Origin: Malassezia furfur
Lineage: Eukaryota
Strand: one strand, 5' to 3'
Assembly (NCBI GenBank): GCA_052055015.1
Contig: JBQJIT010000002.1
DNA: 33,623 nt
The translations under genes were made by a program, and so were the position numbers. Below the pieces are notes generated by a model. That model was not told where the DNA came from. It was given only the letters and a program-made list of their open reading frames with translations, and made no database searches. This document shows, in pieces, positions 116 through 33,623 of the stretch. Within the stretch, counting starts at the first letter, position 1, and the number at the start of each line of letters is the position of its first letter.

Positions 116-1223
116 ATGTCTTCGAGCGCGGCCAAGGGCTACCAGTTGCCCTGGTACGTAGCGCTGCATGTGTGCCGCTGACCACAGGGTGGAAAAGTAC
201 CGACCGCGGCGTCTGGAGGATGTCGTGGGCAATGCGCCGACGATCGAGCGGTTGCGTGTGATCGAAGAAAACGGCAACTGCCCGCACCTGCTAGTGTCGG
301 TGCGTGTCGCAGACTCACGCAGGGCCTGCCCGGTATCGGCAAGACGACGAGTGTACATTGCCTTGCGCGTGCCCTGCTGGGTGATGCATACAAGGAGGCG
401 GTGTTGGAGCTGAACGCGTCCGACGACCGGTAGGTATCATGGGCTGACGTGCAGCGGCATCGATGTGGTGCGCAACAAGATCAAGGTGTTTGCCCAGAAA
501 AAAGTGTCGCTGCCCCCCGGGCGGCACAAGATCATCATTTTGGATGAGGCAGACAGGTGGGTGGCACGGCGCTGACGCAGCATGACGCCCGGTGCGCAGC
601 AGGCGCTGCGCCGAACGATGGAGATTTATGCCAACACGACGCGGTTCTGCTTCGCGTGCAATCAGTCAAACAAGATCATTGAGCCGATCCAGAGTCGCTG
701 TGCCATTTTGCGGTTTGGGCGTGTCTCGGACGAGGAGTTGCTGCGCCGGCTGGTGGAGATCTGCAAGGCGGAGCACGTCGAGTACGCCGACGAGGGCCTC
801 GCCGCGATCGTGTTTACGGCCGAGGGCGACATGCGCCAAGCGATCAACAACCTGCAGTCGACGTGGACAGGCCAAGGGTTCGTCAGCGCAGACAACGTGT
901 TCAAGGTGTGCGACCAGCCGCACCCGATGCTGCTGCACGAGCTGCTGACCGCGTGCCACCGCGGCGAGATCGATGCAGCGCTCGACAAGCTCGATGAGGT
1001 GTGGACGCTTGGGTACTCGGCACTGGATATTGTCACGACCCTGTTCCGCGTGGTGAAGACCATGGACGAGCTGCCGGAGCCGGTCAAGCTCGAGTACATC
1101 CGCGAGATCGGCTGGACGCACATGCGCGTGCTCGAGGGCGTCGGCACGCTGCTGCAGCTGAGCGGCCTGGTGGCGCGCCTCGCGAATCAGGCTATGGACC
1201 CACAGCGTTTCGTGATTGCATAA
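116..1223 (+). CDS. RFC4: Replication factor C small subunit (yeast Rfc4 / human RFC2 type), 333 aa
   Basis: Exons 116-153, 188-299, 323-429, 455-556, 581-1223; introns of 34, 23, 25 and 24 nt. Splicing restores PWVEKYRP, Walker [44 protein letters not shown] and the SRC motif. Confidence 0.95.
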
Positions 1224-1272
1224 TGCGTAGCGAGTCCTGCGTTCCATGCACAAAGAGAGCGTGTCTATGTAC

Positions 1273-4200
1273 CTATGCGTCGCCCGCGCGATACGCGCGC
1301 CCGGCCGACAACCCCCGCGTGGTGTCGTCGGCGTAGCCTGTCGCCGACGACGCGCGGCCCAGCCCCGCGCGCAGCTCTGCATTATCCTGGCGCAATTTGA
1401 GATGCTCGTCCTTGAGCCGGCGGAGCATGTTTTCCGTATTTCGCACAAATTGGACCGCGGTCAGATAGTCGTTCTCGAGCTGCGTCGTGCGTTCCTGGTG
1501 CGCGGCGGTGGCCTCTTCGAGGCGCGTCTCGGCCTCGAGCGCGCGTGCGCGCAGCGACTCAAGCTCGGCACGCGATGCGGAGGCCTCGCGTGCGCGCGCG
1601 TCGCGCTGCTGGCGCTCGAGGTCGAGATGCATCTGCTGCAGCTGGTCGCGCGCCAGCTCCAAGTCGCGCGTGGCGCGCTCGGCGATGCCGCGGCACTCGT
1701 CGAGCTCGCGCTGGAGCTGGGCAGTCTGCCGGTCATGCAGGTAGTCGGGGCGCTTGAGCGTCTCCTCGTCGGGGATCTCGACGTGGTTCTCGGCGAGGAG
1801 GCGGCGCAGCGCCAAGTTCTTGACGTGCGCCTCCTCGAGCTCGCGCGCGTGCGCCTCGGTAGAGCTGCGCGAGGTCTGCGACTGGTCGCGCACCTGCGCA
1901 AGCTCGTGGAGCGCCTGTGCGAGCTGCTTGCGCTGCGCGGTAACCTCACCGAACAGTTTGTTGTTGGTGCGCTGCAGCTGGTTGCTGCGCTCGGTCGCCT
2001 GTTGCAGCGAGGCGGCCATGTTCTGCACCGCGGCGCGCGACTCCTCGTGGAGTTGCCGCATGGCCAGCGCCTCGTCCTGCAGTGCCTGCACATGCTCGAG
2101 ATGCTGCTGCGAGACGTCGCCGCGCGTGTCCTGCGCTGCATCGCGCTGCGTACCCTGCGACTGCTGCAGTGCAAGCAACTGCGCGAGACCGCCCGTAGCC
2201 GCCTCGCGGTGCGCCTGCGCCTCGCGCTGCAGGTTGCTCACGATCGACTCGAGCTCGGCGACGACCGCCGCCTGCTGCTCGAGCTGCCCGTTCTTCATGG
2301 CGAGCTCCGCAACGCGCGCCTGCAAGTCGGTGCGCAGCTGCATCACCGTCTGGCTCTGCGCCTCGGCCTGCCGCTGGTGCTCGGCGCGCTGCCGCTCGTA
2401 CTCGGCGGTGCGCGCATGCGCCGCACTGAGCGCCTCTTGGAACTGGGCCAGCGTCGCACGGCTCGTGTCGGCTGAGCGGCTCTTGCTCGTGACACTCTGC
2501 TCGAGCGAGTCGCGCTCCGCCTGGTACTGCGCCAGGGACGAGGAGAGCGAGGAGATTTGCGCGGTTTGGTCGCGCAGCAGCGACTCGGTGACGTACGAGT
2601 GTTTTTGCAGCGTCGAGTACTCGTCGTACACCTTGATGTGCGCCTCCTCTGCCGCAACCGCCCGCTTGGTCGTCTCGCTCAGCCGGTCTTCGACCAGCGA
2701 GCGCAGGCGCGACTCGAGCTTCGCCTGGTCCACCAGCACGCTCACCTTGCGCTCAAGCTCCGTGTTCTCCTGCGTGGCGGTTGCCAGCAGCTTCTCGAGC
2801 TGGGCAACACGCTGCCGCTCGATCATTACCCGCTCCTCGACGTTGGTCGACTCGCTGGCAACCAGCTTCGCGCGGTAGTACGCGGCCTCTTGCAGCGCCG
2901 CAATGCGCGCGCGCTCCTGGCTCGCAATGCGTACCTCCTCGGCCTTGATCTGCTCGCCGAGGTCCGCACGGACCGAAGACACCTGCGTCTTGAGCGTGAG
3001 CAGCGACTTGATCATCGCTTCGCGCTCCGAGCCCTCGGCACCGACGTCGAGCTGCTCCACGGCCAGCGCATCGTTGACCGTCGGCAGCACCACACCCTGC
3101 TTCGCGGCAATCGCAAGCATCGAAGAGAGCCATAGCTCGCGGGTCCCAGGGGGGTCGCTCGCCTCGAGCAGGCCGCTCGCCTTCTCGGCCTCCCCAGGCG
3201 GCACCTCGACGGGCGCAGCACTCGGCCCAGTCGCCTGCGTCACGGGCGGCGCCGGCGGCGGAATCGCCGGCGGGCCCTGCGGCGCACGCGGCACGGCCGA
3301 CACGGGTGCCGCGGAGGGGGGCGCCGTGGAGGAGGGCGCCGTGGAGGCAGGCGGCGCATCGGTGCTTGCGACGCGATTCAAGTACACGGCCGTGTCGAGC
3401 GGCGGCGCAGCGTGTGGCACCGCATCGTCCGCATCGGTGGCCGGTGTGCGCGTCGCTGCCGCCAGCGCATCCGACGTCGGTGGCGCCGAAAGAGTGCCGT
3501 ACGTCGACGACGACGACGCACCGGACGGCTGAGGCCCCGTATACGGCGACGGCTGCGGTGGTGGTGCATACAGCCCCGCGCTCGAGGCGCCGCGTGTTGT
3601 GTCCACAGGCGTAGTGTTGGCCGGTGGCACAGGCGTCTGCATCGGCGGCGTCGCAGCACGCACCGGCGGCTGCGACTGCGGCGTGGGTGGTGCCGGCACA
3701 TTGGTCGCGGCGACCCCGGCTGCAGCGGGCGGCGCGCTCGGTGGTGCGCTGGGTGCGGGCTGCTGCGAGCTGCTCTCTTCGCTTTTGGAGTTGGAGCGCT
3801 CAGCCTTGGCGGGGTACTTGATCTTGGACGTGTCAAGCACATGCAGCGTTGTAGGGTCGTCCTGCGCTGCGCCCGTGAACGACTCGCCACCCACGACGAG
3901 GATCCGGTTCTGCGTGGTGACCATGGTGTGTCCCGAGCGCCCAAACGGGGCAGGGCCCATGTGGGCAAACATAAACCAGCGGTGGCTCGAAATCTTGAAG
4001 CTTGCCAAGTCGCCGAGGTCGTTGCCGTCGACGCCACGGCCGCCGAAGATGTACATGATGTCGTCGACCATGCACGCTGCGTGGCCCTCGCGCGGCGCAG
4101 GAATGTACCCGACGCACTTGAGCTCGGTCCAGGTCTGCGTCGCGAGGTCAAAGCACCACGTGTCGTTGTAGTGGTAGTTGCCATCCGTGCCGCCAAAGAT

Positions 4201-5636: not shown

Positions 5637-5656
5637 CACGTGGACCCACGTGGACC
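5637..5656. promoter_or_regulatory. Tandem CACGTGGACC x2 (two E-boxes 10 bp apart) in a divergent promoter
   Basis: Direct repeat seen in the sequence between the ATGs at 5412 (-) and 5683 (+). Function is inferred. Confidence 0.45.
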
Positions 5657-5682: not shown

Positions 5683-6503
5683 ATGCTTCGGTGGTTAGGG
5701 TGTGTGTGGTGGCTTGTGCTTGTGGGCGTCTGCGCCGTTCACGCACACCGGCAGGAGACCCAGGGGCGCGCGAGCCCGGTGACTGCCGCAACACCAGGCG
5801 TAAAGGCGCCGGCAACGCCCACCCCATCCTGGCTCGCATACCATCGCGCCGCGCCCACCCTGGTGCCGCGCCAAAACGCCGGCACCACCAGCACGACGTC
5901 GGGCAGCAGCAGCGGTAGCAGCAGCAGCAGCGATGATGATGATAGACTCCCTGCTGGTGGCCTCACCGTCACGCAGCCAGCGCAGACCGCTGACGAGTCC
6001 TACTACAAGATCGCGCCGCACGAGACAGTCACGTTCGGATGGTCGTTCACCTCGCTCAAGACTCAGCCGGACCGTTTATTTGTGGTTGCATCGTGCTCGC
6101 AGAATGGATACACGTACCCGATTGCACCCTCGCCCCAAGGCATCCCCGGCGATGCGACGAGCGTCACTTGGTACCCCTATGGCTACCGCCTGAGCGCACA
6201 GGCCAATGGCCAGCCGGACCTGGCCGCGGCCAAGTACCGTCTCGTGATCTACGACGAGGAAGGACCGTCTGCCGCAGCCAGAGGCGGGCGTTTCTCGCCA
6301 AACAACGCGGTAGAATTCGCGATGTACTTCCCTCAAGCCTATACCCCTCTCGCTGGTACGTGTCTCTACCGTGCTTACATGCAGAATGGAACTGTCCATC
6401 GTGCAATGGTGCATCTGCGCTCTCCCTACGTTCACCGCTGGTCGTTGGTATCGGGAGTACGCTGCTCGTCGGCGCGCTCTCCACGCTTTGGCTCCTCCCG
6501 TAG
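5683..6503 (+). CDS. Secreted, probably GPI- or membrane-anchored fungal protein (DUF7137-like, family name from memory), 263 aa
   Basis: Signal peptide MLRWLGCVWWLVLVGVCAVHA, Ser/Thr-rich linker and a conserved-looking domain (YYKI..VTFGWSFTSL..ASCS). Intron 6356-6384 (29 nt) restores YTPLAEWNCPSC followed by a hydrophobic C-terminal tail. Confidence 0.75.
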
Positions 6504-8656: not shown

Positions 8657-9676
8657 ATGGCCTTGGCGCGACTCGCGGTGTATGAGGCGCTCGGTGCACA
8701 GCGCCGGTGCCTCGACCTGCGCGCCGACGTCTCAGCAGGGCATCTTCGGCATGCCGTGCATGTCGCGCGCCTTGCATCGCTCAAGGCACGCTTCAGTACC
8801 TTGCCCAAACGCGGCGTACCGTTTCTGGTCGTGTGCGACGGCGAGGAACTTGCGGACGTCGTCCATGCCTTTGTCCCGCCTGAGCGGTGGAATATTGTGG
8901 CGATCCTGGGCATTGGCGCTCGCGATGCACCGCCGTGTGTACACCCGTGCTACGCGCTGTCGTGGGACGCACTCCGTGCGTGGGCTGTCGAGCGAGATGA
9001 ATGGACCACGGCGCACGATCCGCACCTCCTCTTTTCGCCCGCACCCGTTGTCGAACGCGTACTGCAGGGATGGGAGCCGCCGTACGATGCATGTCTTCTG
9101 GACATGGGGTGCGGCGCAGGGCGCGACGTCACCTACCTTCTTGTGGAAGGGCGTCGTCGGTCGGCGGCCTGGCGCGCGACCGCCGTCGATCGCTGGCGTG
9201 CTGCGCTCGACCGTGCCGCACTTCTGTTGCGCGACAACAACCTCCTAGAGGGCTCCGGTGCGCGTGCTGATGCGCTCCTGCCCATGAGTGTGCTCGACGA
9301 CGGGCAGGTGCAGCTCCATGGGCGCCGCTTTGCGTTCGCCGATGCGCCGCTCCCGCACACAAGCTATACCCTCATTTTGCTCATCCGGTTCTGGCACAGA
9401 CCACTGTTAGAGGCACTTCCGGCGCGTACAGCGCCCGGAACCCGCGTGGTGCTGAGCCACTTTGTGCACACCCCTGAGCAGATCGACGTGCCGCGTACCG
9501 CAACGTTTGTCGCCTACGAATCGCCGCCGCCGTCGGCACGCATCCAACCGGGTGACGTGGATACCCTACTTGCGCTCTGGAATAAGCACCAGTGCTGGCA
9601 CACCATAGACAACCGCATCGAGCCCGTCGAGGACGGTCGGCCCGTGCAGAGCGTCGTGCTGCAGCGGCTTCGGTAG
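8657..9676 (+). CDS. Rhodanese-like domain fused to a class I SAM-dependent methyltransferase (TehB-like), 339 aa
   Basis: N-terminal LDLR....GHLRHAVH...LP.R..PFLVVCD pattern (rhodanese-like), motif I LLDMGCGAGRD and ATAVD. Intronless. Confidence 0.7.
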   Translation: MALARLAVYEALGAQRRCLDLRADVSAGHLRHAVHVARLASLKARFSTLPKRGVPFLVVCDGEELADVVHAFVPPERWNIVAILGIGARDAPPCVHPCYALSWDALRAWAVERDEWTTAHDPHLLFSPAPVVERVLQGWEPPYDACLLDMGCGAGRDVTYLLVEGRRRSAAWRATAVDRWRAALDRAALLLRDNNLLEGSGARADALLPMSVLDDGQVQLHGRRFAFADAPLPHTSYTLILLIRFWHRPLLEALPARTAPGTRVVLSHFVHTPEQIDVPRTATFVAYESPPPSARIQPGDVDTLLALWNKHQCWHTIDNRIEPVEDGRPVQSVVLQRLR

Positions 9677-9694: not shown

Positions 9695-11915
9695 ATGGCG
9701 CTCGTGTAGGTGACGCGCTGATGCAGCTCCGTCGCGACCTGCTCGCTAAACCAGTGGGCCCTGGACTTTGACGGCAACCGCGACCGGATCGCGGCTTCGA
9801 TCCGTGCGGCCAAAGCGCGCGGATGCACGCTGCGCCTCGGACCTGAGCTGGAGATTTCGTAGGTGCATGCACTGACGCAGGGGATACGGAGTACGCTGCC
9901 ACGCGCGCTGACCCAGTGCTATGACCACTTCCTTGAACACGACACCGAGACGCACTGCTGGGAGGTGCTGGCCGAGCTTTTGAGCTCGGACCTCACCGAC
10001 AACATCCTGTGCGATGTTGGCATGCCGATCCTGCACCACTCGGTCCTGTACAACTGCCGCGTGATGATCGCCAACCGCCGCGTCGTACATGTGCGCCCAA
10101 AGATGTGGCTGGCTAATGACGGCAACTACCGCGAGATGCGCTGGTTCACGCCATGGATGCGCCCGCACGTCGTCGAGGACTACCGCCTGCCGCCGTGCAT
10201 CACCGATATCACGGGCCAGAGCCAAGTGTCGTTTGGCGACGCGCTGATCTGCACGAACGACACGGTTCTGGGCGTGGAGCTGTGTGAGGAGCTCTTCACG
10301 TCGGCAAGCCCCCACATCGTTCAGGGATTGCACGGCGCCGAGATCATTCTCAATGCGAGTGGAAGCCACCACGAGCTGCGCAAGTTGCACCGCCGTGTCG
10401 AGCTGATCAAGGAAGCAACGCTCAAGTCGGGCGGTGTGTACCTCTACGCCAACCAGCGTGGTTGTGATGGTGACCGCCTTTACTACGACGGATGTGCACT
10501 GATCGCCGCGAACGGCGCCATTGTCGCCCAGGGTGCGCAGTTTGCGCTTGACGAGGTCGAGGTTGTGAGTGCGACCGTCGACCTCGCCGAGGTGCGTGCG
10601 CACCGCACTGGCAAGAGCCGCGGGATGCAAGCCGCGTGGATGCAGAGCGGACACCTCGGCGTGTTCCCCGGCGGCCCGGCGCGTGTGGCCGTCGACATTA
10701 CGCTCTCGCGCACACGGGCGTATGACGAGGCGCCCACGCCGCCGATGGATGTGCACTACTCCACGCCCGAAGAAGAGATTTCCCGTGGGCCCGCGTGCTG
10801 GTTGTGGGACTATCTGCGCCGCTCCCGTACGCAGGGATTCATGTTGCCGCTCTCGGGCGGAATCGACTCGTGTGCGACGGCGACGATCGTGTATAGCATG
10901 TGTCGCATCGTGCACAAGGCGTGCGCGGAGGGTAACGATCAGGTCCTCGCCGACGTGCGTCGCATCGCGGGGGCCGACGCGCCATGGGTGCCCGCGTCTC
11001 CGCAGGACATTGCGCACCGCGTCTTTGTCACCTGCTACATGGGCACCACCAACTCGAGCAAGGAGACACGCGCGCGCGCCGCCCAACTCGCCGAGGCGAT
11101 TGGGTCCTACCACTACAACTTTGATATCGACTCGGTGGTGAACGCAGTCTTGTCGCTGTTCACTTTGGTGACGAAGCGCACGCCGCGCTTCAAGGTACAC
11201 GGCGGGACGCCGGCCGAGAATTTGGCCCTGCAAAACATCCAGGCGCGCTCGCGCATGGTGCTCGCGTACCTCTTTGCGCAGCTTGCACCCTGGGTACAGG
11301 GACGCGGCGGTGGCCTACTTGTGCTCGGCAGCGCCAACGTCGACGAAAGCCTGCGGGGCTACCTGACCAAGTACGACAATTCGTCCGCGGATCTGAACCC
11401 GATCGGGAGCATTTCCAAGACGGACCTGAAGCGGTTCATTGCGTACGCATGCGAGACGTTTGACATGCCAATCCTACGCGAGTTCCTCGAGGCACCGCCC
11501 ACGGCGGAGCTCGAGCCGATCACCGAGACGCACGTCCAGAGCGACGAGGCGGACATGGGTATGACCTACGACGAGCTCTCGGTAATGGGACGCATGCGCA
11601 AGGTCGAGAAGTGCGGGCCGTACTCGATGTTTGTACGCATCGTCCCGTTGTGGACGCCCAGGATGACGCCGATGCAGATTGCCGACAAGATCAAGCTCTT
11701 CTTCTTCGAGTACGCGCGCAACCGGCACAAGATGACCACCCTCACCCCGTCGTACCATGCCGAGTCGTATTCGCCCGACGATAATCGCTTTGATCTACGC
11801 CCGTTCCTCTACCCCAGTCACTTTGCACACCAGTTCCGTAAGGTGTATGCACTCGCTGAAGAGGTACGTCGCCGCACTGACCTAGATGATGCAGCAGCAA
11901 AACAAGCAGACGTAG
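9695..11915 (+). CDS. QNS1: Glutamine-dependent NAD+ synthetase, 709 aa
   Basis: Exons 9695-9705, 9727-9858, 9881-9890, 9917-11863, 11886-11915. Splicing restores [12 protein letters not shown] and GPELEISGYGCYDHFLE. Nitrilase-domain ELCEELF and synthetase motifs PLSGGIDS and [13 protein letters not shown] are present. The last intron rests on splice signals only; the unspliced frame would end at 12034. Confidence 0.95.
9706..9726 (+). other. 21-nt spliceosomal intron (QNS1 intron 1)
   Basis: GTAGGTGACGCGCTGATGCAG. It carries an in-frame TAG and must be removed to join ATG 9695 to the conserved [12 protein letters not shown]. Confidence 0.85.
9881..9890 (+). other. 10-nt microexon of QNS1
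   Basis: GGGATACGGA lies between introns 9859-9880 and 9891-9916 and supplies the conserved GYG of GPELEISGYGC. Confidence 0.88.
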
Positions 11916-12088: not shown

Positions 12089-13096
12089 TTACTGCTTTTT
12101 GGCGAGCTGCTCCGCCTTGCGGATGGCACGCTTACGCGTGTTCAGGTTGTAGTCTGGGTCAGTCGTGCATCTCCACGTACCGTACGAGCGGCTGAGCATC
12201 AGGCCGGCGGGTGTCAGGTGCGACGTCGCCCAGTCGAGCCACGCATGTGCCGGCCAAGGAGTCATCGTGAAAGGCCTGCCGAGCGCACCCGTGGAGCGGC
12301 CGATGCGCGAGAGCGCCGCCTTGACGTAGTCGTCAGGGAGCGGAATCATCAGCGAGGCGCGGCGGATCTTGGACATACTGCTCACCACGAAGAAGGTGTT
12401 AAGCAGCTGCACGTCGACGTTTGCGCGGCGCATCTCTTCACCCAGCGCATACGTCCAGCCGATCAGGAAGGCCTTTGAGCCCGCGTACGTGGCCATCATA
12501 GGCGTGCCCCACTGGCCCGTGAACGAGCCGAGGTTGAGGATCAGGCCGCGCTTGCGCGCCACGAGCTTGGGCGCCACGAGTTTCGTGACGCGCTGCGTGA
12601 CAATCACGTTCATATTCGTGATGCGCTCAATCTCCGACTCTGCCATGTCCAGGAACGTCTCGGGCATCTCGTGCGATGTACCCACATTGTTCACGAGCAC
12701 GGCAATGTCCAGGTGGCTGATCAGGCGACCAAGGCCCTCGTACTCGGCCGCTGAGGCCACGGAGAAGTCCATGGCGTAGATGGCGGTCTTGGTGCCGACG
12801 TACTTGCCCTGGATCTCGCGGCTGAGTTCCTCGAGCTTGGCCTTCGTGCGACTCACGAGCACGACGTTGAACCCGTTCTTGGCCAGCTGCACGGCAAACG
12901 AGCGGCCAATGCCGTCCGTCGCACCGGTCACCAGTGCCCAGCTGCCAGCGCCGCGCGACTTGGTGTTAGCACCGTATGTCGTGAGCGGGATACCGGGAAG
13001 GACATGGATCTCGAGGATCAGATAGAGCAGGTACGCAGCCACGGCGATCAGGACCACCGCGCCGACCGCGGCGAGCGCTTTCGTTCCACAGCACAT
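12089..13096 (-). CDS. IFA38: Very-long-chain 3-oxoacyl-CoA reductase (SDR family), 326 aa
   Basis: N-terminal TM segment, [24 protein letters not shown] catalytic motif and C-terminal KKQ. Probable in-frame 27-nt intron at 12154-12180. Confidence 0.88.
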
Positions 13097-18026: not shown

Positions 18027-18386
18027 CTACCTCGACGAACAGCATCCCGAGCGCTCGCGCTCGATCTCGGCGGGAGTCTTGAGCCGCAGGCTCAGCGCGT
18101 GGACGCCGCGCTCGAATTCGGGCGCTAGCAGCGCATTCACCGCACGGTGCCGCGCGATCTGCGGCTTTCCCTGAAACTGCTCCGAAACAACTTCCACAAA
18201 AAAGTCTGAGTGAGTGTGTCGACGTACGTGTCTCGCCGTTGCCGCCGTTCTGGGCGGCCATCGCCGCGTGGTGCGCATGCTTGGACGAGCTGCATCAGAT
18301 ATACCCACTTACTCATTGCGGATAAACAGGTGAGAGGGCGCAAACGCATCTGCAATCTTTGCGCGGATGCTGTCTTCGACGGACAT
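18027..18386 (-). CDS. BolA-family protein (BolA1/Uvi31-like), 104 aa
   Basis: Exons 18386-18313, 18289-18228, 18205-18027 (introns 23 and 22 nt). Product contains NDSSKHAHH..GETHFFVEVVSEQF..IARHRAVN..GVHALSLRLKTP. The ORF track shows only fragments. Confidence 0.9.
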
Positions 18387-19859: not shown

Positions 19860-21866
19860 ATGGTCCAAGCGGAGCGACGTCGCGCACCGAAGCGCAGCAA
19901 GCAAACGCAGGAGCCTGAGGAGACGCATGCCGAGGATCCAGAATGGGTGAACATGGGCGAGGCTAACACACCATTTGGGCTTGTTGCCCCTGAAATGCAA
20001 GCCTATTTCAAGGAGGTGAATGCTACTCTGACCAACCTTCTGCACAGCGAAGACCCCGATACCGGTAGTGAAGAGGCCGGGCTCCTACTTCAGGCGGCAC
20101 TGACCGAGATGGACGGAAATGAACTGTCACTTGCAACAGATCCGACATGCTCGCTTGTGCTTGAGAACATGGCGGGCATCATGAAGGAAAAGGCTCTTCG
20201 TGTTTTTTTCGATCGCATGTCAGGCAGCTACGTGGTCCTTGCAACGCATCGCTACGGCTCGCATGTTCTTCAATCAATGCTTTCTGCTGCACAGAAGATG
20301 TTAAATGGTATGGACCATACGAAACAGACGCCAGTGACGAAAGAGGGCGACTTACGAACGCTGCCTCAGCTCGTGGAGGCCATGTTCCGTGAAATTGAGC
20401 CTTCCCTCGAGGCAATGATGGCGGACCCATTCGCGACTCATGTCCTGCGGAGTATCATGGGACTCTTGACTGGTGTGCCAATCGTGTCTCTGGAAGACCT
20501 TCGTTCCAAGCGAAGCACCAAATATCGATCCAAAGAGCGGCAACGTGCGATGGTGGATACCTCTTCGGAGCCGGTCGAAACTGGGCCACTCAACGTCCCT
20601 TACAATTTCTTGCCTCTTGTCTACCAGCTGTATGAAGACCTTCATGCGTCACTACCGCCTACTACGCTTTATTCTCTCCTCCCAAATGCCGTCGTCGCAC
20701 CGACGCTTAGCCTTCTGCTCAAACTCGAAAGCGGCTTGCGTGATGGAAAGAAAAGCATGGCAGAGCGCCTCGACTCGCTGACCTCGCGTGTCCTCGGTGA
20801 CCTATCGGGCAAGCAGACCGAGCGCAGCGACGTCATTGAATCGGCCATTCGTGACGCTGTTGCAACACACGTCCTGGAGAGTGCCCTGCGTGGAGCTTCA
20901 GCGGCGACTTTGATCCGCTTCTACGACATGTACATTAACGGTCGGGTTTCCAAGCTGGGCGGTCACCCCTGTGCCAACTTTGTCGTTGCCACTGTCGTCC
21001 GTCTTTTGCCGCTACACTCCGAATCATTCCGCAAAACGATTGCTGAACTGGAACAGGCTGGCGACCACCTGGTGAAGAACCAGGTGCTTGGAGTACTGCA
21101 AACAGCCGTGGAACGTTGTGCCCAAGGAGATCATCTTGAGGAAGAGATCCTTCGGGCTGTCCTTGCAGCTTTCCGATTCCCCGAGGACGGCGATGCCGCA
21201 ATGTTTGTGCCCGTCGTGCTCAGCATGCGCACATTCAAAGCTTACACCCACACGATCGTGGAAGGCAAGGACAAGAAAAAGCGGAAAGAGGACGATGCAT
21301 TCACGACACAGGGCAGCATCTTGCTCCAACGCGTCGCGCAGCTGCATCCTCCTCGTCAAGACCTGCTGTTTGCGAGCCTCACCAAAAGCGAGCGTTTGAA
21401 GGAATGGTGCTGTTCTGCTACGGCCGTGCATGTCGTTTTAAGCGCTTTGACAGCTCCTACGGCGACTTTTGCTCAACGACGGTCCCTTCTTCGATCCCTT
21501 CTTCCCCTGCTCATCGAATTGTCAGACGATGCCTGGGGCAGCCGCGTTGCTGATGCTGTATGGAGCGCGGCAGACGGATTCACCAAAGACAAAATTGCTG
21601 AACTAGCTGTTTCGCACGAAAAGCAACTGCTCGCATCCGCGTATGGGCGATTCTTTGTGCGCAAACTTCGCCTGGGTCTGTATCGCAAGAGTTGCGGCGA
21701 ATGGAAGGAATGGGCCAAGGCCCAATCCACGCCTCCTGCGGCTGCGCCCTCCGATTCTACCAATGTCTTTGCATTTTTGCGGACACGCAAGCTCAGCAAA
21801 CCCTCCAAGCATGGCGATGCACAGGCAGACCAGCAACTCGCCGACATTCTCTCGGCTATTCCGTAA
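19860..21866 (+). CDS. NOP9: Nucleolar protein 9 (Pumilio/PUF-like repeats, 18S rRNA maturation), 668 aa
   Basis: PFGLV..EMQAYFK, ELSLATDPTCSLVLE, LATHRYGSHVLQ, DPFATHVLR, HPCANFVV, DAWGSRV, YGRFF. The true start is the ATG at 19860 inside the 1218-aa track ORF. Confidence 0.88.
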   Translation: MVQAERRRAPKRSKQTQEPEETHAEDPEWVNMGEANTPFGLVAPEMQAYFKEVNATLTNLLHSEDPDTGSEEAGLLLQAALTEMDGNELSLATDPTCSLVLENMAGIMKEKALRVFFDRMSGSYVVLATHRYGSHVLQSMLSAAQKMLNGMDHTKQTPVTKEGDLRTLPQLVEAMFREIEPSLEAMMADPFATHVLRSIMGLLTGVPIVSLEDLRSKRSTKYRSKERQRAMVDTSSEPVETGPLNVPYNFLPLVYQLYEDLHASLPPTTLYSLLPNAVVAPTLSLLLKLESGLRDGKKSMAERLDSLTSRVLGDLSGKQTERSDVIESAIRDAVATHVLESALRGASAATLIRFYDMYINGRVSKLGGHPCANFVVATVVRLLPLHSESFRKTIAELEQAGDHLVKNQVLGVLQTAVERCAQGDHLEEEILRAVLAAFRFPEDGDAAMFVPVVLSMRTFKAYTHTIVEGKDKKKRKEDDAFTTQGSILLQRVAQLHPPRQDLLFASLTKSERLKEWCCSATAVHVVLSALTAPTATFAQRRSLLRSLLPLLIELSDDAWGSRVADAVWSAADGFTKDKIAELAVSHEKQLLASAYGRFFVRKLRLGLYRKSCGEWKEWAKAQSTPPAAAPSDSTNVFAFLRTRKLSKPSKHGDAQADQQLADILSAIP

Positions 21867-21930
21867 CTATGAAGATAAGATTTATGCCACGGGGCTAACA
21901 TCGTAGCATGAGCTACAATAGCCAAGCCGC

Positions 21931-22711
21931 ATGGCACTTTCATCTCCGTCTCGACGAGCGCCCGCAATCCCCAGGGGTGTGCGCAAGCGCAGGGAGCGAG
22001 TGACTCTAAAGCCCAGACGTTGTTAAAGACATTAAGGAAGAAGAAAATCTTTGCGCGCGGCCGAATTTATTGCGCACGTGGTCAGGAGCACAGACCACCT
22101 CCGTCCCGCTAAGCCCCATGCCGGTCGCGCCGCCAAGCTCGTCGAGTAGCCGTACATTGCGCAAGTTTCGAGCAGTCCGCTCCCCTGAGAAGTCAAAGAA
22201 TCATGGGAGGGATCACGAAACGTCCGAATTAGCGGTCGAGCGCATCATCACCTCAACGCCCTGGCTCGCAGGCACGCGCCGGCTGGAAGGGGCTACTCGC
22301 ACAGAAATCTATGCACTTGTGAACGATCGCAGCGTCAGTGGACGCGATACCGACCATGAAAGCAGCGATGAGAGTAGAAAGCGCTCTGCGCTGGGAACGA
22401 GACGTGAATCTTCACGAAAGTCGGCGTCCAAGTCGGAATGGGAACATCTGGGGCTCCACAATTTGGGCAAGAAACGCAAAAGTTCGAGTCCGTATGCCAG
22501 TGAGGCCGGGAGTACAGCAGGAAGTGACTCAGAGTCTACGCTTCCCGCATCGCGTGGCTCACGTACACGCCGCATAAGTTCGAGACACAGTACACCTGTC
22601 CGTACTGTCGAGCTGGAAACTTTACCGTCGCGCCTCAATGCGGCGAATGCACCGGCGCATCCGAGCCCACTGGGCACACATGCTATCCTTGCTGAAGATT
22701 CCCCAAAATAA
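21931..22711 (+). CDS. Hypothetical Ser/Arg-rich low-complexity protein; 5' end uncertain
   Basis: Open frame to TAA 22709-22711 fills the gap between NOP9 and the TTL gene. Possible first exon 21931-21976 with a weak 40-nt intron (21977-22016), or an ATG at 22118. Confidence 0.4.
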
Positions 22712-22713
22712 GC

Positions 22714-24003
22714 TTATGGATCCTTCACCATTTCTTCCGCGAAACAGCAAGTTACACCATCATGACTCTCTCCCTTCTTCCATGGCGACGCAGGACGCAG
22801 CACCCCCAGTTGGAGGGCGCGTTGGAACACGTGCTCAATGGTTTGTCGGAGCGCTTCGCCGCTTTGCTTAAAGTCGGGTTGCTGTGTTAGAAGGGGACAT
22901 ACTGCATTGATCTCCAAGAGCCAAACATGAAGCGATTCGGGGGACAGACTAGCATCGGCCGTCACCATCAGGTCCACACCGAAGATTTCAAACGCGTTGG
23001 GCCACATTTGCCAGTGCACCGAGGCCTCACGCGCAACGGCCTCGAAGACGGTACCAATCGCTGAGACTGCACCCTTGTGGATCGCATCCATATGCATCTG
23101 CGACATGGTGCTCGCAGGAGACCCAGGCGTGCTGATTTCTTTGCCAAGAAGATCGCGTAGGCGGAACACGTTGGGGAGCACTGGGACCCCACGTGCTTGT
23201 GCCTCCCGCTCGCCCAGACATGTGTTACTCAGGTGTCCTTGCAGGTCTCCATCCTCTGAAGGAGCCGAATAGGGCACTGAGGCAAACAATGCAAGCATAT
23301 CATCATGAAGGTACACGGCAAGTCCTCCAACGCAAGTCACGTAGGCTCGCAGATGGAACTTGCGCAGCCCCCCCTCGCTCGGTGCCACAAGCAAGGGAGG
23401 CACCAAATATTGTTGTATAACGAAGTGGCGCAAATGACTTGCATAGGTTGTCTCCTCGTTGTCTTCGTCGTCGCTTGCGTCCTCCATGTCTTCAAAGATC
23501 TGTTGCAAGCGCTCGAGCGAAGAAAAGAGCTGGATGCCGTTGCCCTGATCAGCCATACCCGGCTTTAAAATGAACCATGTGGGATGGTTGGACGATTCGT
23601 TCGCGATGAGCGCGTCACGCACATCGTAGAGCTCGTCTGCCAACAGCTCGTCGAGCTCGTCAGCAAACTGGACATCTAGCGTCCATGTACGTGGAATCAC
23701 ATCCACGGGCATCCCACGCTTCACACCAAACATATGTAGCGCTTGTGCGAGATGATGTTTCCGAATAAGGGCCTTGCGGATGTAGTAACTGCTGCACAGG
23801 GCATTTTGCTGGGCGAGATTATCAAAAGGAAGAAGGTCATAGTCGACAACGTAGGCGTCGTAACCGGACGGGGTAGCATCCGCGTCTGCAGGGGAATCCT
23901 TTGGTGTATGTACCTCCCATCCCTCCAGCACGGCATTTGCCGCGGCTCGCGCAGCTTGTTCGGTGTATGGCGCACCAGGGAAGCATACGAACGCCTTCTG
24001 CAT
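22714..24003 (-). CDS. Tubulin-tyrosine ligase family ATP-grasp protein (Pby1/TTL-like, no SurE domain seen), 422 aa
   Basis: SSYYIRKALIRKHHL, WFILKPGMADQGNGIQLF, RHFVIQQY, RKFHLRAY, FEIFGVDLMV, WLLEINA|QPDF (21-nt intron 22882-22902). Confidence 0.88.
   Translation of the reverse strand: MQKAFVCFPGAPYTEQAARAAANAVLEGWEVHTPKDSPADADATPSGYDAYVVDYDLLPFDNLAQQNALCSSYYIRKALIRKHHLAQALHMFGVKRGMPVDVIPRTWTLDVQFADELDELLADELYDVRDALIANESSNHPTWFILKPGMADQGNGIQLFSSLERLQQIFEDMEDASDDEDNEETTYASHLRHFVIQQYLVPPLLVAPSEGGLRKFHLRAYVTCVGGLAVYLHDDMLALFASVPYSAPSEDGDLQGHLSNTCLGEREAQARGVPVLPNVFRLRDLLGKEISTPGSPASTMSQMHMDAIHKGAVSAIGTVFEAVAREASVHWQMWPNAFEIFGVDLMVTADASLSPESLHVWLLEINAVCPLLTQQPDFKQSGEALRQTIEHVFQRALQLGVLRPASPWKKGESHDGVTCCFAEEMVKDP
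22882..22902 (-). other. 21-nt in-frame, stop-free intron in the TTL-family gene
   Basis: GTATGTCCCCTTCTAACACAG on the minus strand. Removal restores LLEINAQPDF. Confidence 0.85.
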
Positions 24004-24259
24004 GAGTGGAGGTGAAATGCCACGCACGGATGAGAGGTCTACGCGCGGATTCTTTTCGGCAGCACAACGGCGATGGTCACGGCAAACGGATGGCTAATGG
24101 GTGTATAACTCCAAACGCAATGCATTGCATCGTGGTGTGCCCTTTGTGTTGGCGTATATCCCTAGGCTGTTACCGACCACGCGTGTTGGCCACGTCCGAG
24201 CGAGGCACACATGTGGAGGTGTCACCTTTTCGAGCTCCACCAGTTTCCCGCTCGCCACC

Positions 24260-25018
24260 ATGGTCACGGTCATTGTCGAAGAAGTCACGGACGCGCCTGA
24301 TTCGACGCTGTCGAACGTGCAGCCGTCTCGGATTTCGGAGAGAGAGAGTCTTTCTTCCCTCCTTTACATGCTTGATGACCCCCCCACTAAAGACGCATCC
24401 ATCATCGCCGATATCGACCGACTGATGGACCACGACCTTTTCGCAGACGCCATGGGCCGGCGCCTGCTTGCTGTTCTCGGCCACGACATCGAGGACGAAC
24501 GCCTCCTCGCAGCACAATACCTCCTGGACCATATCGACGCCGCTGACAGTGAAGAGCCGTTCGACGACGAGCGTCCAACCTGGCTGCCGGGCCGTGCGCC
24601 AGGCTCCGCGCTGGGCACGTGGCTCCGGGATCTGGCCTTGGGCTACGACCCATCGCCCGCGTCGTACCGTGTGTTGCCCGGCGGCTACGTATCGTCAATC
24701 GCATACCATGAGGACGATGCGGATGGTGATGTTGAGGAGGATGACGAGGACGAGCTGCTGGGCGAAGACGAGGACTACCTCGACTGGCTTGGCCTCCAAT
24801 TGCTCCACTGCCATTCCGGCATGCCCCCCTATATTATCGATGGCGTACATGAGTCCGGCGATGATACTGCCTCGGTATACACGCTGGAAGCAAGTACGTT
24901 CGTGTCCCCCCACCCCTTGGCGCACTAACCATCAGACGACCTTGACGCAGACCCATTGCTTGGCACGTCGCCGAACCAGCGACCACGTAAGTCGCTCCGA
25001 CTTCAGTCATATTCGTAG
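24260..25018 (+). CDS. Hypothetical highly acidic protein, about 238 aa
   Basis: ATG in GCCACCATGG context; D/E-rich. Probable 42-nt intron at 24894-24935 (GTACGT...CACTAACCATCAG) moves the stop from 24928 to TAG 25016-25018. Confidence 0.6.
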
Positions 25019-26419
25019 CTACAACCCCTCATCCCACACGTCACGCTTGGTGCCGTGCCGCAGTACACTAAGCCGGCTGCGGTAGTCGTCGTGCGGAACG
25101 TATGCGCCGCACAACCGGCGACTCCCCACAAACTGCGAGCGCCCGTGCAAAACACGGTGATTGTCAAAAATCATCGCCACTCCGGGATGCAAGGGGAACC
25201 AGTACTCGGTTTTTGCGTCTGTAATGATGGCATTCCACGTTCGGAGTGCCTCGTATACGCCCTCCAGCTGATTCGGAGGAACGTGCAATGCGCTGCGGTC
25301 GCTGTTGTTGTACCGGATCATGACCAAAGCATCCGTCACTGGGTCGTGCTCAAAGACCGAGTAGCCGCGCAGCAGCGGGGCAATCAACGTCGAGTCGTCT
25401 CCCGCCGAGTGGCCGCGGAAGCGCACCGTGCGTAGGATGTCGTACAGCTCTGGGTGCCGGTCGTGCAGCTGCTTCGCGGCATAGAACCCATCCACTAGGA
25501 GCGAGCTACCGCCCAGGGGCGCGCCAGTGTATTTGTCGACAAAGTCGGTCGGGGTCGGACTGTAGTGGTGCAGCAGGTGAAACAGCTGCAGGCCCGCAGG
25601 ATCGGTAAAGTAGGTTGTGTCGGTGTGTGCACCCAACGCAATGTCTGTGTACGCCGTATCACCGTGCGCCAGGTCTGACGTAAAGTCCCAAAACCCACCG
25701 TAGTGCGTTTCGCGGATAAAAGCAATTCGCCGCACGAGAGCTTCGGTCGCTTCGGGCGTGGTGGGGACGCCCGATACAAAGCTGAAGCCGTACTTGTCAA
25801 TGTTGTTCAGCCAGTCCAATACAACGCTTTCTGACTGCATCACCCCCTCGTATTCGACTGTAGGCTGCACGGAGGCGATCTCGGCGCCCCACAGCAGCTT
25901 TTCGGAAGCTTCCGAGCCGTGGCCCAGCCCACTGGTCTGGAACGTGAGCTCGTGCGAGCGCGTCTTGGGATCGTAAGCCTGACGCTCAAGCCAGGTCCAT
26001 GGGAAGAGCGAGGTGTGCTGGTCCGGCCAGACGACGCGGAGGCCATCGGGAAGCGCGGCGACTTCTTTGGGCTGGACGTCCGCAGGGATCGCAAACGTAT
26101 CCAGAAGCCGCTGCTTGGTGATCGGATGGTAGCAGTCTGGGCAACGACAGTGGTCGCGCAGCCAGAGCGGGTGGAAGTCGCCTTTCTTGCCGCTCGGCCA
26201 GGTGACATTGACCCAGCCCCCGGAGCGCGCAATGGTCGGGTGCGACAATGTCGATGTGGCCGATGCCTGTGTGGCCAGTGCGCGCAGCGGTACCCGTGTA
26301 GGGCATGACGACACCGGCGCAGTGGCGTATAAGTGCGATCGTGCCCTACCCCCGCGACGCAGCGCCGACCAGCCGTGCCGCATACCCCACATAGCACCCA
26401 TTTCGCACCGCGCCCACAT
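25019..26419 (-). CDS. Trimethyllysine dioxygenase (carnitine biosynthesis; TauD/BBOX-like Fe(II)/2-oxoglutarate enzyme)
   Basis: WLRDHCRCPDC Zn motif, FIRETHYGGFWDFT, AHTDTTYFTDPAGLQLFH, FDNHRVLHGR and an Arg-rich presequence. The start is uncertain (ATGs at 26419, 26401, 26392, 26383). Confidence 0.9.
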   Translation of the reverse strand: MWARCEMGAMWGMRHGWSALRRGGRARSHLYATAPVSSCPTRVPLRALATQASATSTLSHPTIARSGGWVNVTWPSGKKGDFHPLWLRDHCRCPDCYHPITKQRLLDTFAIPADVQPKEVAALPDGLRVVWPDQHTSLFPWTWLERQAYDPKTRSHELTFQTSGLGHGSEASEKLLWGAEIASVQPTVEYEGVMQSESVVLDWLNNIDKYGFSFVSGVPTTPEATEALVRRIAFIRETHYGGFWDFTSDLAHGDTAYTDIALGAHTDTTYFTDPAGLQLFHLLHHYSPTPTDFVDKYTGAPLGGSSLLVDGFYAAKQLHDRHPELYDILRTVRFRGHSAGDDSTLIAPLLRGYSVFEHDPVTDALVMIRYNNSDRSALHVPPNQLEGVYEALRTWNAIITDAKTEYWFPLHPGVAMIFDNHRVLHGRSQFVGSRRLCGAYVPHDDYRSRLSVLRHGTKRDVWDEGL

Positions 26420-29913: not shown

Positions 29914-32132
29914 ATGAGCAGCATGGCGGCCGAGGGCCATGCGCCCAAGATCAAGAACCGTGCGCCGGCGCCGGTGCAGATCACCGCGGAGCAGTTGCTG
30001 CGCGAGGCCCAGGAGAACCAGGAGAAGCCCAAACTCAAGAGCCAGCGGCATCGCATCGAGGATTTTGAGCAGCTCGAAGAATACCGCGCACGGAAGCGCA
30101 CCGAGTTCGAGGATGCCGTGCGCCGGCTCCGGGGGAATGTACGTGCACTCAGCTCACCCAGATGGTCGCGTGGATCCGGTATGCGACGTGGGAAGCGAAC
30201 CAGGGGCTGATGGACCGCTGCCGCTCGGTGTTTGAGCGCGCGCTGGACGTGAATCCCCACCATGTGCCGCTCTGGCTGCGCTACACGGAGCAGGAACTCA
30301 AGATGCGCAACGTGAACCACGCACGCAATCTGTTTGACCGCGCGGTCGCGATCCTGCCGCGCATCGACCAGCTGTGGTACAAGTACGTGCACGTCGAAGA
30401 GCTCCTCGGCAACGTCGCCGGCACGCGCGAGATCTTTGAGCGGTGGATGGGCTGGGAGCCGGACGAGCGCGCGTGGAACGCGTACATCGCATTCGAGGTG
30501 CGCTACAAGGAGCTCGACCGCGCGAGCGCCGTGTGGGAGCGCGCCGTGACATGCCACCCCGAGCCGCGGCAGTGGATCCGGTGGGCAAAATTCGAGGAGG
30601 AGCGCGACCGGCTCGACAAGGCGCGCGACGTCTTCCACATGGCGCTCGACTTCTTTGGCGAGGAGGAGGCGGCGCTCGAGCGCGCCCAGACCGTCTTTAC
30701 CGCGTTCGCCAAGATGGAGACGCGCCAGGCGGAATACGACCGCGCGCGGATGATTTATAAGTATGCGCTCGAGCGGCTGCCGCGCGCCAAGAGCGAGGGC
30801 ATCTACGCGAGCTATACGCGCTTCGAGAAGCAGTTTGGCAATATCCAGGGCGTCGAAGATACCGTCACGCAAAAGCGGCGCCTGCAGTACGAAGAGGAGC
30901 TCGACACGGCGCGCGAGGCGACCAACTACGACACGTGGTTCGACTACACGCGCCTCGAGGAGGACTCGTACCGCGCGCTCGTCGAGCAGGGCGCGCCGCC
31001 GTCGCTGCTTGACGCGGCGCGCGACAAGGTGCGCAGTGTGTACGAGCGCGCGATTGCTCAGACGCCGCCCGCGGACGAAAAGCGGCTGTGGCGCCGGTAC
31101 ATCTACCTGTATCTCCGCTACGCGCTCTTTGAGGAGATCGACACGCGCGACCTCGAGCGCGCCAAGGCGGTGTACGCGTCGGCGGTCGCCGCCGTGCCGC
31201 ACCGCGCGTTTACCTTTGCCAAGCTCTGGCTGGCGTACGCCTACTTTGAGATCCGGCGGCGCAATGTGCAGCTCGCACGCAAGATCCTTGGCACGGCCAT
31301 CGGCCTCGCGCCCAAGCACAAGCTCTTCACCGGCTACATCCAGCTCGAGCTCGAGCTCAAAGAGTTCGACCGCGTGCGCAAACTGTACGAAAAGGCGCTC
31401 GAATGGGACGCCAGCAGCGCCGCGACGTGGGTGCAGTTCGCCGAGCTCGAGCAGAACCTGTACGATTTGGAGCGCGCGCGCGCCATCTACGAGCTCGCCA
31501 TCGAGCAGGCCGAGGCCGAGGCCGGCGGACTCGACATGCCCGAGGTCGTCTGGAAGGCGTACATCGACCTCGAGTTTGCCGAGCGCGAATGGGCGCGCGT
31601 CGATGCGCTGTACGAGCGCCTGCTCGACAAGACCGGGCACGTCAAGGTGTGGATCAGCTACGCCCAGAGCAAGATCTCTGCGGCCATCGCACTCGAGGAG
31701 GATGCGGATGCAGACGCCGAGGAGCAGGCCGAGGCCCAAGGCGCCACCTACGCCCCGAGCGCCGAAGAGCAAGCGGCGCGCGCCGCCCAGCGCGCCGAGG
31801 CGGCCGAGGCGTCGCGCGCGCTGTTCGCGCGTGCCTACGACCGCCTGCGTGCCGACCAGCTCAAAGACGAGCGCGTCGTCCTCCTCGAGGCGTGGAAGGC
31901 GTTTGAGACCGAGCACGGCGACGAGGCGCACGTGGCCGCCGTGCAGGCCAAGTGGCCGCGCGTGGTCAAAAAGCGCCGCGAGATCGCCGAAGGCGCCGGC
32001 GCCACCGAAGAGGTACGTGGCGTGCTCACCCAGTATTACGACCTCGTCTTCCCCGACGAAGAGACGCAGCAGCCCGCGCTCAAGCTGCTCCAGCGCGCCC
32101 ATGCGTGGCGCGCGCAGCAGGCGGCTCCGTAG
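29914..32132 (+). CDS. CLF1: Pre-mRNA splicing factor Clf1/Syf3/crooked neck (HAT repeats), 724 aa
   Basis: [52 protein letters not shown]. Exons 29914-30138, 30162-32012, 32034-32132 (introns 23 and 21 nt). Confidence 0.95.
32013..32033 (+). other. 21-nt in-frame, stop-free intron in CLF1
   Basis: GTACGTGGCGTGCTCACCCAG. Removal restores [11 protein letters not shown]. Confidence 0.82.
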
Positions 32133-32185
32133 TGTGTTGGTGGGGAAATATGCGCTTGCGCCGGTGCGTCGCCGCTCCACCGTGC

Positions 32186-32630
32186 ATGGCGTCGAGCGAT
32201 CCGGCGTTTACGCGGCTCGGCGCGCCCGCCGCGCCCCCCGCGCCCGCCGCGTCCAGCGTGCTTGCCGTGGCGCCGGCGGCGTACACGTGCACGCCGGTGA
32301 GCGCGTGCATGCCGTGCCCGGCGGACGACGTACGTACGCCCGCGTGCTCACCCGCAGCTCGCCTACCCGTACTGCCGCCCGTACAACAACCGCCAGGCGG
32401 TGCAGTGCGTCGCAAACGCTAGCACCCCGGCGGTCCACGGATGGAGCGCGTGCGGTAAGTTCATCGGCGCCGAGGTGCGCGCATACGGCAAGTTTGTGCT
32501 CGCCAACGTCGTCGTCGTCGTCGCGGCCCTCGCCCTGTACGTCTGGCGCCAGGTGCACCAGACGCGCCGCTTCCACGGCATGCTCTACGCACGCGTCCAC
32601 GGCCGCGCCCAGGCGCGCCGCACACACTAG
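32186..32630 (+). CDS. Small Cys-rich single-TM protein, JTB-like pattern, 138 aa
   Basis: Exons 32186-32329 and 32358-32630 (28-nt intron) give CTPVSACMPCPADDLAYPYCRPYNNRQAVQC...WSACGKFIGAE..YGKFV, then a TM segment and RQ. An alternative in-frame ATG is at 32150. Confidence 0.65.
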
Positions 32631-32731
32631 CTGCTTGCACGCAGGCCACTAGCCAAATCTACCCCGCGCACCGTCCGAGCGCGGACTGTGGTGCGCGTCT
32701 ATACAACACGATGCACCCGCCTGCGTGCGCG

Positions 32732-33623
32732 CTACACACACAGGCCCCACACCCATAGCGTCGCCCAGATCCCGAGCCCACTGAGCACGGGGATGAACAG
32801 ATTGTCGTCGATGCCGCCCAGGTCCAGCGACTCGGTCACGCCGGCCACCAAGCCCGCGGCAACGTACAGCAGCCACGCAGGCACCGCCGGCGCACCGCCG
32901 CCCGCCGCCACCGCGTGCGCCCACACCGACGCATCGCCGCGCGCCACAAACCCGCCGCGGATGCCCGTCCAGCCCGTGTGCAGCAGGCCGGGCGCCTGGC
33001 GCGTCCCAAACGTCGCCGTCCCGCCGGGCGTCCACGAGAGACCCGACGCACGCTCGCCACGCCGCGCCAGGCTCGTGCCCCAAAACAGATAGGTGGTCAG
33101 CGACCCGGCCAGCACCGCGGCCAAAAAGCCCGCGAGCGACTTGCGCTGCGCAAACAGCGGCGCGGGCATCGACGGCGTATACCGCCCATACAGCCGCCCA
33201 AACGTCGACGCACACGGGTCACACCACGACAGGATCATGATGCTCACACACGCAATGTCCTCGGGGAACAGGCGCAGACTCGCCAGCACGCCGACCAGGT
33301 ACCACACCACGCCGTTCACGCGCTCCTAACGGTCAGTATGCACGCGACGCACCCGTTCTCCATCGCGCATCAGCGCACCGACCACCGCCTCGTACGCGCG
33401 CTCAAACCCAGGCAGGTTCAGCCGCAGCAGGTCCATCGACGCAATAAACGCCAGCATGTAGCTCAGCACACGCACAATCCGGTCCAGGTCCACATTGAGG
33501 CCATACAGCGCAAGCACCACAAACCCGATGCTCGCGTGCAGCACCTTGCGCGGCACCTCCCACTTGACCACGATCTTTTCCCAGCGCGCCGAGTGCAGCG
33601 GGTGCACGGCGCGCTGGGAAAAG
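32732..33623 (-). CDS. DGK1: CTP-dependent diacylglycerol kinase (5'-partial)
   Basis: WEVPRKVLHASIGF, DLLRLN, LMRDGER|ERVNGVVWYL (27-nt intron 33326-33352), LSWCDPCASTFGRLYG, KSLAG, DDNLFIPV. Confidence 0.9.
33575..33623. repeat. Perfect 17-bp inverted repeat ending at the last base of the window
   Basis: CTTTTCCCAGCGCGCCG (33575-33591) and CGGCGCGCTGGGAAAAG (33607-33623), 15-nt spacer. Confidence 0.9.

Follow-up and report, generated by a model that had tools for sequence, protein, structure and literature searches.

Can segments of no more than a few dozen nucleotides be removed from nuclear genes of a yeast as ordinary spliceosomal introns and, if so, do they call for an unusual spliceosome? 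This question is raised by a 33,623-nt stretch of DNA from Malassezia furfur (contig JBQJIT010000002.1 of assembly GCA_052055015.1; the whole stretch is hereafter called the window), in which a previous reading of the letters without database searches (the sequence-only reading) had listed 23 miniature introns and proposed that their branch site is fused to the 3' splice site, possibly together with altered splicing factors. That interpretation is partly supported by our analyses. The 23 segments are very probably ordinary U2-type GT-AG introns of M. furfur nuclear genes and belong to the miniaturised class typical of the genus. Their information consists of a 6-nt donor (GTRNGY) and a composite 3' element of about 9 nt (CTNAY, 2-4 nt and AG), in which the branch-like motif is anchored to the 3' end of the intron and the branch-to-AG spacing is nearly fixed.

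Sequence architecture of the 23 introns

Each of the 23 segments was found in place, with GT at its 5' end and AG at its 3' end on the coding strand (23/23), and our recount of their lengths agreed with the earlier figures (21-34 nt, a median of 24 nt and three introns of 21 nt), the mean being 24.6 nt. All donors fit GTRNGY, as had been claimed, and are distributed over seven hexamers, namely GTACGT (10 introns), GTGCGT (3), GTAGGT (3), GTACGC (2), GTATGT (2), GTAAGT (2), and GTGGGT (1). The claim of a universal CTNAY also held: every intron contains exactly one such motif, whose putative branch A lies at position -6 in 17 introns, -7 in two and -8 in four, and at position 16 from the donor in all three of the 21-nt introns. 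The motif itself is degenerate, with eight different pentamers among the 23 introns, the CTRAY form in 14 of them, and no conservation of the two preceding bases. The last three bases are CAG in 21 introns, and the G+C content of the whole set is about 59%.

The distance from the putative branch A to the 3' end is 6.4 +/- 0.8 nt (SD 0.77), whereas that from the donor to the A ranges from 16 to 28 nt. Intron length is correlated with the position of the branch motif (r = 0.97), and variation in length thus resides almost wholly in the donor-to-branch segment. In every intron the AG used is the first one after the putative branch A; an unused AG is present upstream of the branch motif in four introns. 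The absence of a polypyrimidine tract, which had been asserted for the whole set, stands for the segment between branch and AG, where only 3-5 nt separate the A from the AG. However, a 9-nt pyrimidine run occurs in two introns (17090 and 22882), either upstream of the branch motif or overlapping CTNAY. The introns are distributed among 12 of about 22 delimited genes, which corresponds to approximately one intron per gene in the window.

Evidence that the segments are introns

The strict pattern (21-34 nt, a GTRNGY donor, and CTNAY with its A at -6 to -8, on both strands) was detected 28 times in the window, in comparison with 4.2 +/- 2.2 times (maximum 12) in 200 dinucleotide-preserving shuffles of the same sequence, which served as the chance expectation. 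These 28 matches comprise the 23 claimed introns, two alternative donors nested within claimed introns, and three matches elsewhere (Table 1). Considering that the five extra matches are close to the chance level, the claimed introns represent the excess. When the 23 segments are taken out, open frames are connected to give 12 genes. According to a codon-usage model trained on the long exons of the window, both flanks of every intron lie in the frame that splicing predicts, except for a 10-nt microexon that is too short to be scored, and at all 15 introns that are not multiples of three the shift in coding frame equals the intron length. No frame change was found in the codon-usage map of the window within any gene that lacks one of these introns at that point. 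If retained, 20 of the 23 introns disrupt the reading frame, 17 by a premature stop and three by a frameshift without a stop before the end of the modelled coding sequence (CDS). Retention of the other three (12154-12180, 22882-22902, and 32013-32033) results in in-frame additions of 7-9 residues and not in truncation; all members of this in-frame, stop-free class, the riskiest one, are backed by homology.

The sequence-only reading had also maintained that most of the introns are needed to restore conserved protein motifs, and 18 of the 23 junctions could indeed be confirmed to the residue by comparison with protein profiles, solved structures, and orthologues. In the RFC small-subunit gene, exons 2-5 tile the archaeal profile NF001679 with a single profile position to spare at each junction, which is taken up by a split codon at two junctions and, at the first, by the final residue of exon 2, which did not align; a stop lies inside intron 1 if it is retained. 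The glutamine-dependent NAD synthetase gene has the densest arrangement. The start of its exon 2 matches position 2 of the CN_hydrolase profile and residue 8 of human NADSYN1 (6ofb_A). The frame of this exon contains a stop at 9719-9721 and no ATG; the 21-nt intron 1 is needed because it links the only ATG to the conserved N-terminus. Further downstream, exon 2 ends at residue 49 of NADSYN1 and exon 4 starts at residue 54, in agreement with the count on the CN_hydrolase Pfam model, and the four residues in between correspond to one split codon plus the microexon, two introns and the microexon being packed in 58 nt (9859-9916). A single 58-nt intron across this interval was rejected, as it would break the frame.

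The three in-frame introns were examined against homologues of their genes. The spliced very-long-chain 3-oxoacyl-CoA reductase agrees with a public M. furfur protein (P0072) at all 326 aa, and the nine residues that read-through would add are missing from orthologues. Similarly, read-through of the Pby1-like gene produces an insertion of exactly seven residues at the 21-nt intron relative to 6y3p_A and 6y3z_P. In CLF1, the seven residues added by read-through of intron 2 fall at gaps of four and nine residues relative to 8c6j_S and 9l5r_J, and splicing brings back a conserved C-terminal motif. Both CLF1 junctions are colinear with Cwf4 and CRNKL1, the colinearity being exact at the first one, where residues 9-73 of exon 1 match residues 4-67 of Cwf4 (9esh_R) and residue 3 of exon 2 matches residue 72. 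CLF1 is a core splicing factor whose own gene bears introns of 23 and 21 nt.

Spliced products of the remaining homology-supported genes were equally continuous. After splicing, the DUF7137 protein has 263 aa, with a single difference from a public M. furfur protein (P0001), and its C-terminal W.C..C motif, which is common to basidiomycete homologues, is present only once the intron has been removed. The UspA-domain product (276 aa) gave a gapless alignment with a public M. furfur protein of the same length (P0193), with junctions colinear with other Malassezia orthologues, and the BolA-like product is gap-free and colinear with two homologues (P0217 and P0219) at both junctions. Exon 2 of trehalose-6-phosphate synthase (TPS1) starts at position 183 of Glyco_transf_20. 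When this exon was used to scan metagenomes, 79 loci with 43-73% identity were obtained, none of them close enough to be Malassezia, and the spliced TPS1 protein aligns unbroken over the junction in 73 of them. In the remaining six, which are fungal (L014, L069, L025, L028, L029, and L041), the alignment is interrupted by 46-97 nt at the junction or close to it, and in two of these the phase agrees with that of the M. furfur intron. This would fit shrinkage of an older intron. The 97-nt intron of L014 at this TPS1 position also has a branch-like motif at -6.

Table 1. Introns, their host genes and other strict-pattern matches in the window (18 introns on the plus strand; five, at 12154, 18206, 18290, 22882, and 33326, on the minus strand)
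Feature	Coordinates	Strand	Length (nt)	Observations
RFC small-subunit gene	CDS 116-1223	+		4 introns
RFC intron 1	154-187	+	34	exon 2 starts at NF001679 position 9 after split codon; frame shifts as expected
RFC intron 2	300-322	+	23	NF001679: exon 2 = 9-44 (36/37 residues aligned), exon 3 = 46-80
RFC intron 3	430-454	+	25	NF001679: exon 3 = 46-80, exon 4 = 82-113
RFC intron 4	557-580	+	24	NF001679: exon 4 = 82-113, exon 5 = 115-318; in-frame stop in intron
DUF7137 secreted/membrane protein gene intron	6356-6384	+	29	CDS 5683-6503
Glutamine-dependent NAD synthetase gene	CDS 9695-11915	+		4 introns and a microexon
NAD synthetase intron 1	9706-9726	+	21	in-frame TAG inside
NAD synthetase intron 2	9859-9880	+	22	upstream of microexon
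NAD synthetase microexon	9881-9890	+	10	three residues (GYG) and one base of split codon
NAD synthetase intron 3	9891-9916	+	26	downstream of microexon
NAD synthetase intron 4	11864-11885	+	22	near C-terminus; open frame and codon-usage shift only
Very-long-chain 3-oxoacyl-CoA reductase gene intron	12154-12180	-	27	in frame, no stop; CDS 13096-12089
Q-rich protein gene intron 1	13547-13574	+	28	CDS about 13145-15343; open frame only once removed
Q-rich protein gene intron 2	14284-14309	+	26	open frame and codon usage
UspA-domain protein gene intron 1	15709-15732	+	24	CDS 15380-16280; in-frame TAA inside
UspA-domain protein gene intron 2	15822-15844	+	23	codon-usage frame and homology
UspA-domain protein gene intron 3	15925-15947	+	23	codon-usage frame and homology
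TPS1 intron	17090-17113	+	24	CDS 16410-18017
BolA-like gene intron 1	18290-18312	-	23	CDS 18446-18027
BolA-like gene intron 2	18206-18227	-	22	
Tubulin-tyrosine-ligase family (Pby1-like) gene intron	22882-22902	-	21	in frame, no stop; CDS 24003-22714
CLF1/crooked-neck intron 1	30139-30161	+	23	CDS 29914-32132
CLF1/crooked-neck intron 2	32013-32033	+	21	in frame, no stop
Small membrane protein gene intron	32330-32357	+	28	CDS 32150-32630; open frame only once removed
Membrane protein gene intron	33326-33352	-	27	gene 33622-32732, runs off window end
Strict match outside claimed introns	25664-25685	+		
Strict match outside claimed introns	9577-9603	-		
Strict match outside claimed introns	23998-24027	-	30	

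Reliability of the intron and branch-site assignments

Several considerations weigh against taking all 23 segments as introns with an anchored branch site. The introns, although most likely real, are read here from the genomic sequence. The motif, being loosely defined, is also expected by chance about four times per window. Recognition must involve more than the signals written out here. The universality of CTNAY is partly circular, since the motif was evidently itself used in the earlier search, and some of the codon-usage flanks are not independent because training exons (RFC exon 5, NAD synthetase exon 4, TPS1 exon 2, and CLF1 exon 2) adjoin the introns under test. Moreover, the five junctions at 11864, 13547, 14284, 32330, and 33326 are placed by reading-frame continuity and codon usage and have no homology support; Pfam and NCBIfam searches with the exons of the Q-rich gene (13145-15343), the small membrane protein gene, and the last gene of the window returned no usable family, apart from a weak JTB-family match confined to exon 2 of the small membrane protein gene. 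It is conceivable that some of the 23 segments, with these five as the candidates, are chance matches in coding or untranslated sequence, and the existence of five unclaimed strict matches points in the same direction. However, the introns at 11864, 13547, 14284, and 32330 are not multiples of three and the codon-usage frame shifts across each of them by exactly the intron length, the frames in the small membrane protein gene being as predicted. In the fifth (33326), the TAG of the 3' splice site is an in-frame stop, and a strong coding signal continues in the same frame on both sides. The in-frame, stop-free introns, for which the frame offers no such argument, were all confirmed by homology, and we consider chance matching among the 23 extremely unlikely.

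The branch site was also weighed separately. The branch adenosine is assigned by consensus only, its pairing with U2 would comprise just 3-4 bp, and nine of the 23 motifs are CTYAY and not the usual CTRAY. These departures, together with the presence of at least one other internal A in 22 of the 23 introns, could suggest that CTNAY...AG is an extended 3' splice-site motif read by a protein and that the true branch point is another nucleotide upstream. However, the A of CTNAY is the only internal adenosine in the homology-confirmed intron 32013-32033, and in several other introns the only alternative A sits 7-11 nt from the donor. In addition, CTNAY agrees with the branch consensus across fungi, such as the ctgac-type motifs of Ustilago maydis (table in PMC2483917), and for Yarrowia and Trichomonas an anchored motif of this kind is the accepted branch site (PMC2483917, PMC12316389). 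A branch point elsewhere in the intron is thus, in our judgement, very unlikely.

These sequence features fit a model in which each intron is recognised as a unit (intron definition), with a short branch site and use of the closest AG downstream. Its donor would pair with U1 and U6, and the short CTNAY would be read by SF1 and then by U2, as is generally the case for introns of the U2 type. The 3' splice site would be the first AG a few nucleotides downstream, which may already lie within reach of the catalytic centre after branching, so that a pyrimidine tract would play no part and little or no help would be required to position the 3' splice site.

Comparison with other short-intron systems

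The 3' architecture described above is not new. In Yarrowia lipolytica, also a fungus, a 3' pyrimidine tract is absent and the branch motif is followed by 2 nt and AG, which places the A at -6 (PMC2483917), as in 17 of the 23 M. furfur introns. However, Yarrowia introns have a median length of 204 nt, and they have a strict branch hexamer (71% actaac) in a genome poor in introns (PMC2483917), whereas M. furfur combines a degenerate CTNAY with introns of 21-34 nt and approximately one intron per gene. With regard to the anchored branch point-AG class (Irimia and Roy 2008), the M. furfur introns share the fixed small spacing and the absence of a tract between branch and AG but lack the near-invariant branch hexamer in an intron-poor genome. 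They work like members of this class without being typical of it.

Trichomonas vaginalis and Giardia lamblia provide a second parallel, in which a 12-nt 3' element contains the branch site and 4 nt separate the motif from AG, the A being at -8 (PMC12316389, PMC2483917). The same position is used by four of the 23 M. furfur introns, and the short type B introns of these organisms go down to 23 nt (PMC12316389). Trichomonas differs in having about 63 introns per genome, a near-invariant consensus, and a T-rich intron body, and it belongs to the unrelated metamonad lineage. Ciliates fall into a similar or smaller length class with thousands of introns: Paramecium introns are about 25 nt long (PMC8997360), and those of Stentor measure 15-16 nt, with the branch A at position 10 of 15, that is, at -6, and with both U2AF1 and U2AF2 kept (PMC9505925). 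Ciliate introns are, however, AT-rich with a weak branch consensus, in contrast to the G+C-rich M. furfur introns with their recognisable CTNAY; the AT-rich body and weak or absent branch consensus that mark the ciliate and nucleomorph type were not found here. Among parasites with reduced genomes, Encephalitozoon cuniculi has introns that measure 22-76 nt and keep to strict donor and branch motifs (PMC3629993), and in microsporidia introns number only a few dozen, the spliceosome is depleted, and splicing is inefficient. Myxozoans have a median intron length of 22 bp, a missing or very short pyrimidine tract, and retained U2AF1 and U2AF2 (PMC13644364). Unlike E. cuniculi, myxozoans, and dicyemids, Malassezia is a yeast that can be cultured. 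With their anchored spacing, degenerate CTNAY, length of 21-34 nt, and density of about one per gene, the M. furfur introns are therefore another case of a known type and do not form a new one.

Is an altered spliceosome needed?

The sequence-only reading had suggested that Malassezia may have lost or changed U2AF and/or the step-II factors Slu7, Prp18, and Prp22, with the branch site and AG being read as one element. Several observations are in line with this proposal. The 3-5 nt between branch A and AG leave too little room for a canonical pyrimidine tract. Budding yeast can dispense with Slu7 at branch-to-3' splice-site distances of 9 nt or less (PMC10158995), a range that includes all 23 introns, and the step-II part of the idea is therefore still reasonable as a hypothesis. 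A subset of short introns in humans relies on SPF45/RBM17 instead of U2AF (PMC8363638), and Cryptococcus mutants of RBM17, CCDC12, FAM32A, and FAM50A affect introns with an unusual branch-to-3' splice-site distance (bioRxiv 10.1101/2021.03.19.436190). However, the retention of U2AF1 and U2AF2 in both Stentor and myxozoans implies that changes in U2AF are not required for introns this short. Most fungi are without a pyrimidine tract, and Yarrowia has the -6 spacing in introns of ordinary length (PMC2483917). Moreover, a literature search on these factor names gave no Malassezia paper. Taken together, an altered spliceosome appears unlikely. It seems equally doubtful that CTNAY-N2-4-AG would act as a single composite element for which tract reading by the U2AF large subunit and positioning by Slu7/Prp18 are dispensable or modified, with about 16 nt from donor to branch as a hard lower limit. 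The position-16 branch of the 21-nt introns had been taken to indicate such a lower limit on lariat size; this proposal, which is based on three introns, does not hold generally, given that the 15-nt introns of Stentor have their branch at position 10 (PMC9505925).

Malassezia introns in public annotation

The best protein matches identify the host as M. furfur, with 100% identity to the queried exons, followed by other Malassezia species. That Malassezia introns are short, which had been presented as established, is stated for the genus (PMC7426719) and has been quantified for M. sympodialis, whose curated annotation of 4493 genes comprises 5350 introns that average 30 bp, 99% of them supported by RNA-seq (Zhu et al., PMC5389616 Table 2). 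The window resembles M. sympodialis in genus, intron density (approximately one per gene), and intron size. This is nevertheless another species, and the available text of that paper and its supplement provides sizes and counts only, with no branch-site or 3' architecture. Our literature search, whose coverage left out most subscription journals, returned no description of the branch/3' architecture in Malassezia, which is not proof of its absence.

Two public M. furfur protein records already use the splices described here. On the other hand, many ORF (open reading frame) calls in assemblies read through the introns and carry 'GT'-type residues exactly at the intron positions, which indicates that the intron positions are common to Malassezia species. 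Two annotated records, one from M. psittaci and one from M. furfur, skip or read through Usp exons, contrary to the colinear model. The mis-modelled public proteins of both kinds are P0194, P0196, P0002, P0003, P0073, P0077, P0082, P0192, and P0205. We also observed that exon 1 of the Usp gene is 94% identical to the best M. furfur records while the reductase is 100% identical to the record of another M. furfur strain; the strain of the window diverges from annotated M. furfur strains unevenly along the region.

With the default minimum intron lengths of gene callers and read aligners, such introns are missed or misplaced, and annotation or RNA-seq mapping in Malassezia needs a minimum intron length below 21 nt as well as support for microexons. 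In a 2026 paper devoted to ultra-short introns, the exceptions below about 30 bp are given as ciliates, microsporidia, and dicyemids, and Malassezia is unmentioned in its available text (PMC13644364); to this extent the genus appears to be under-used as a genetically tractable system for splicing of minimal introns. If the composite-element reading were true, a culturable and transformable yeast would become a model for a full-size spliceosome acting on introns near the physical minimum.

Other candidates and gene context

One larger candidate was noticed at 24894-24935 on the plus strand (42 nt; GTACGT...CTAAC...CAG, with the A at -8), at the 3' end of a gene for an acidic protein (ATG near 24260). 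It exceeds the 21-34 nt range, and the spliced and unspliced versions both reach a stop shortly afterwards. The strict match at 23998-24027 was not counted as an extra intron, as it contains the only in-frame ATG of the Pby1-like gene. Rfam searches of the whole window (plus 21800-22800 at an E-value threshold) and a tRNA scan detected no small nuclear RNA or other RNA gene, the sole Rfam matches being two microRNA models that fell far short of their gathering scores. The interval between NOP9 and the Pby1-like gene is filled by a serine/arginine-rich ORF (22118-22711, plus strand) with weak codon bias and no Pfam match, which ends 3 nt from the Pby1-like stop codon. Genes are extremely tightly spaced elsewhere as well: the methyltransferase-like gene at 8657-9676 is separated by 41 nt from the preceding stop codon and by 18 nt from the ATG of the NAD synthetase gene at 9695.

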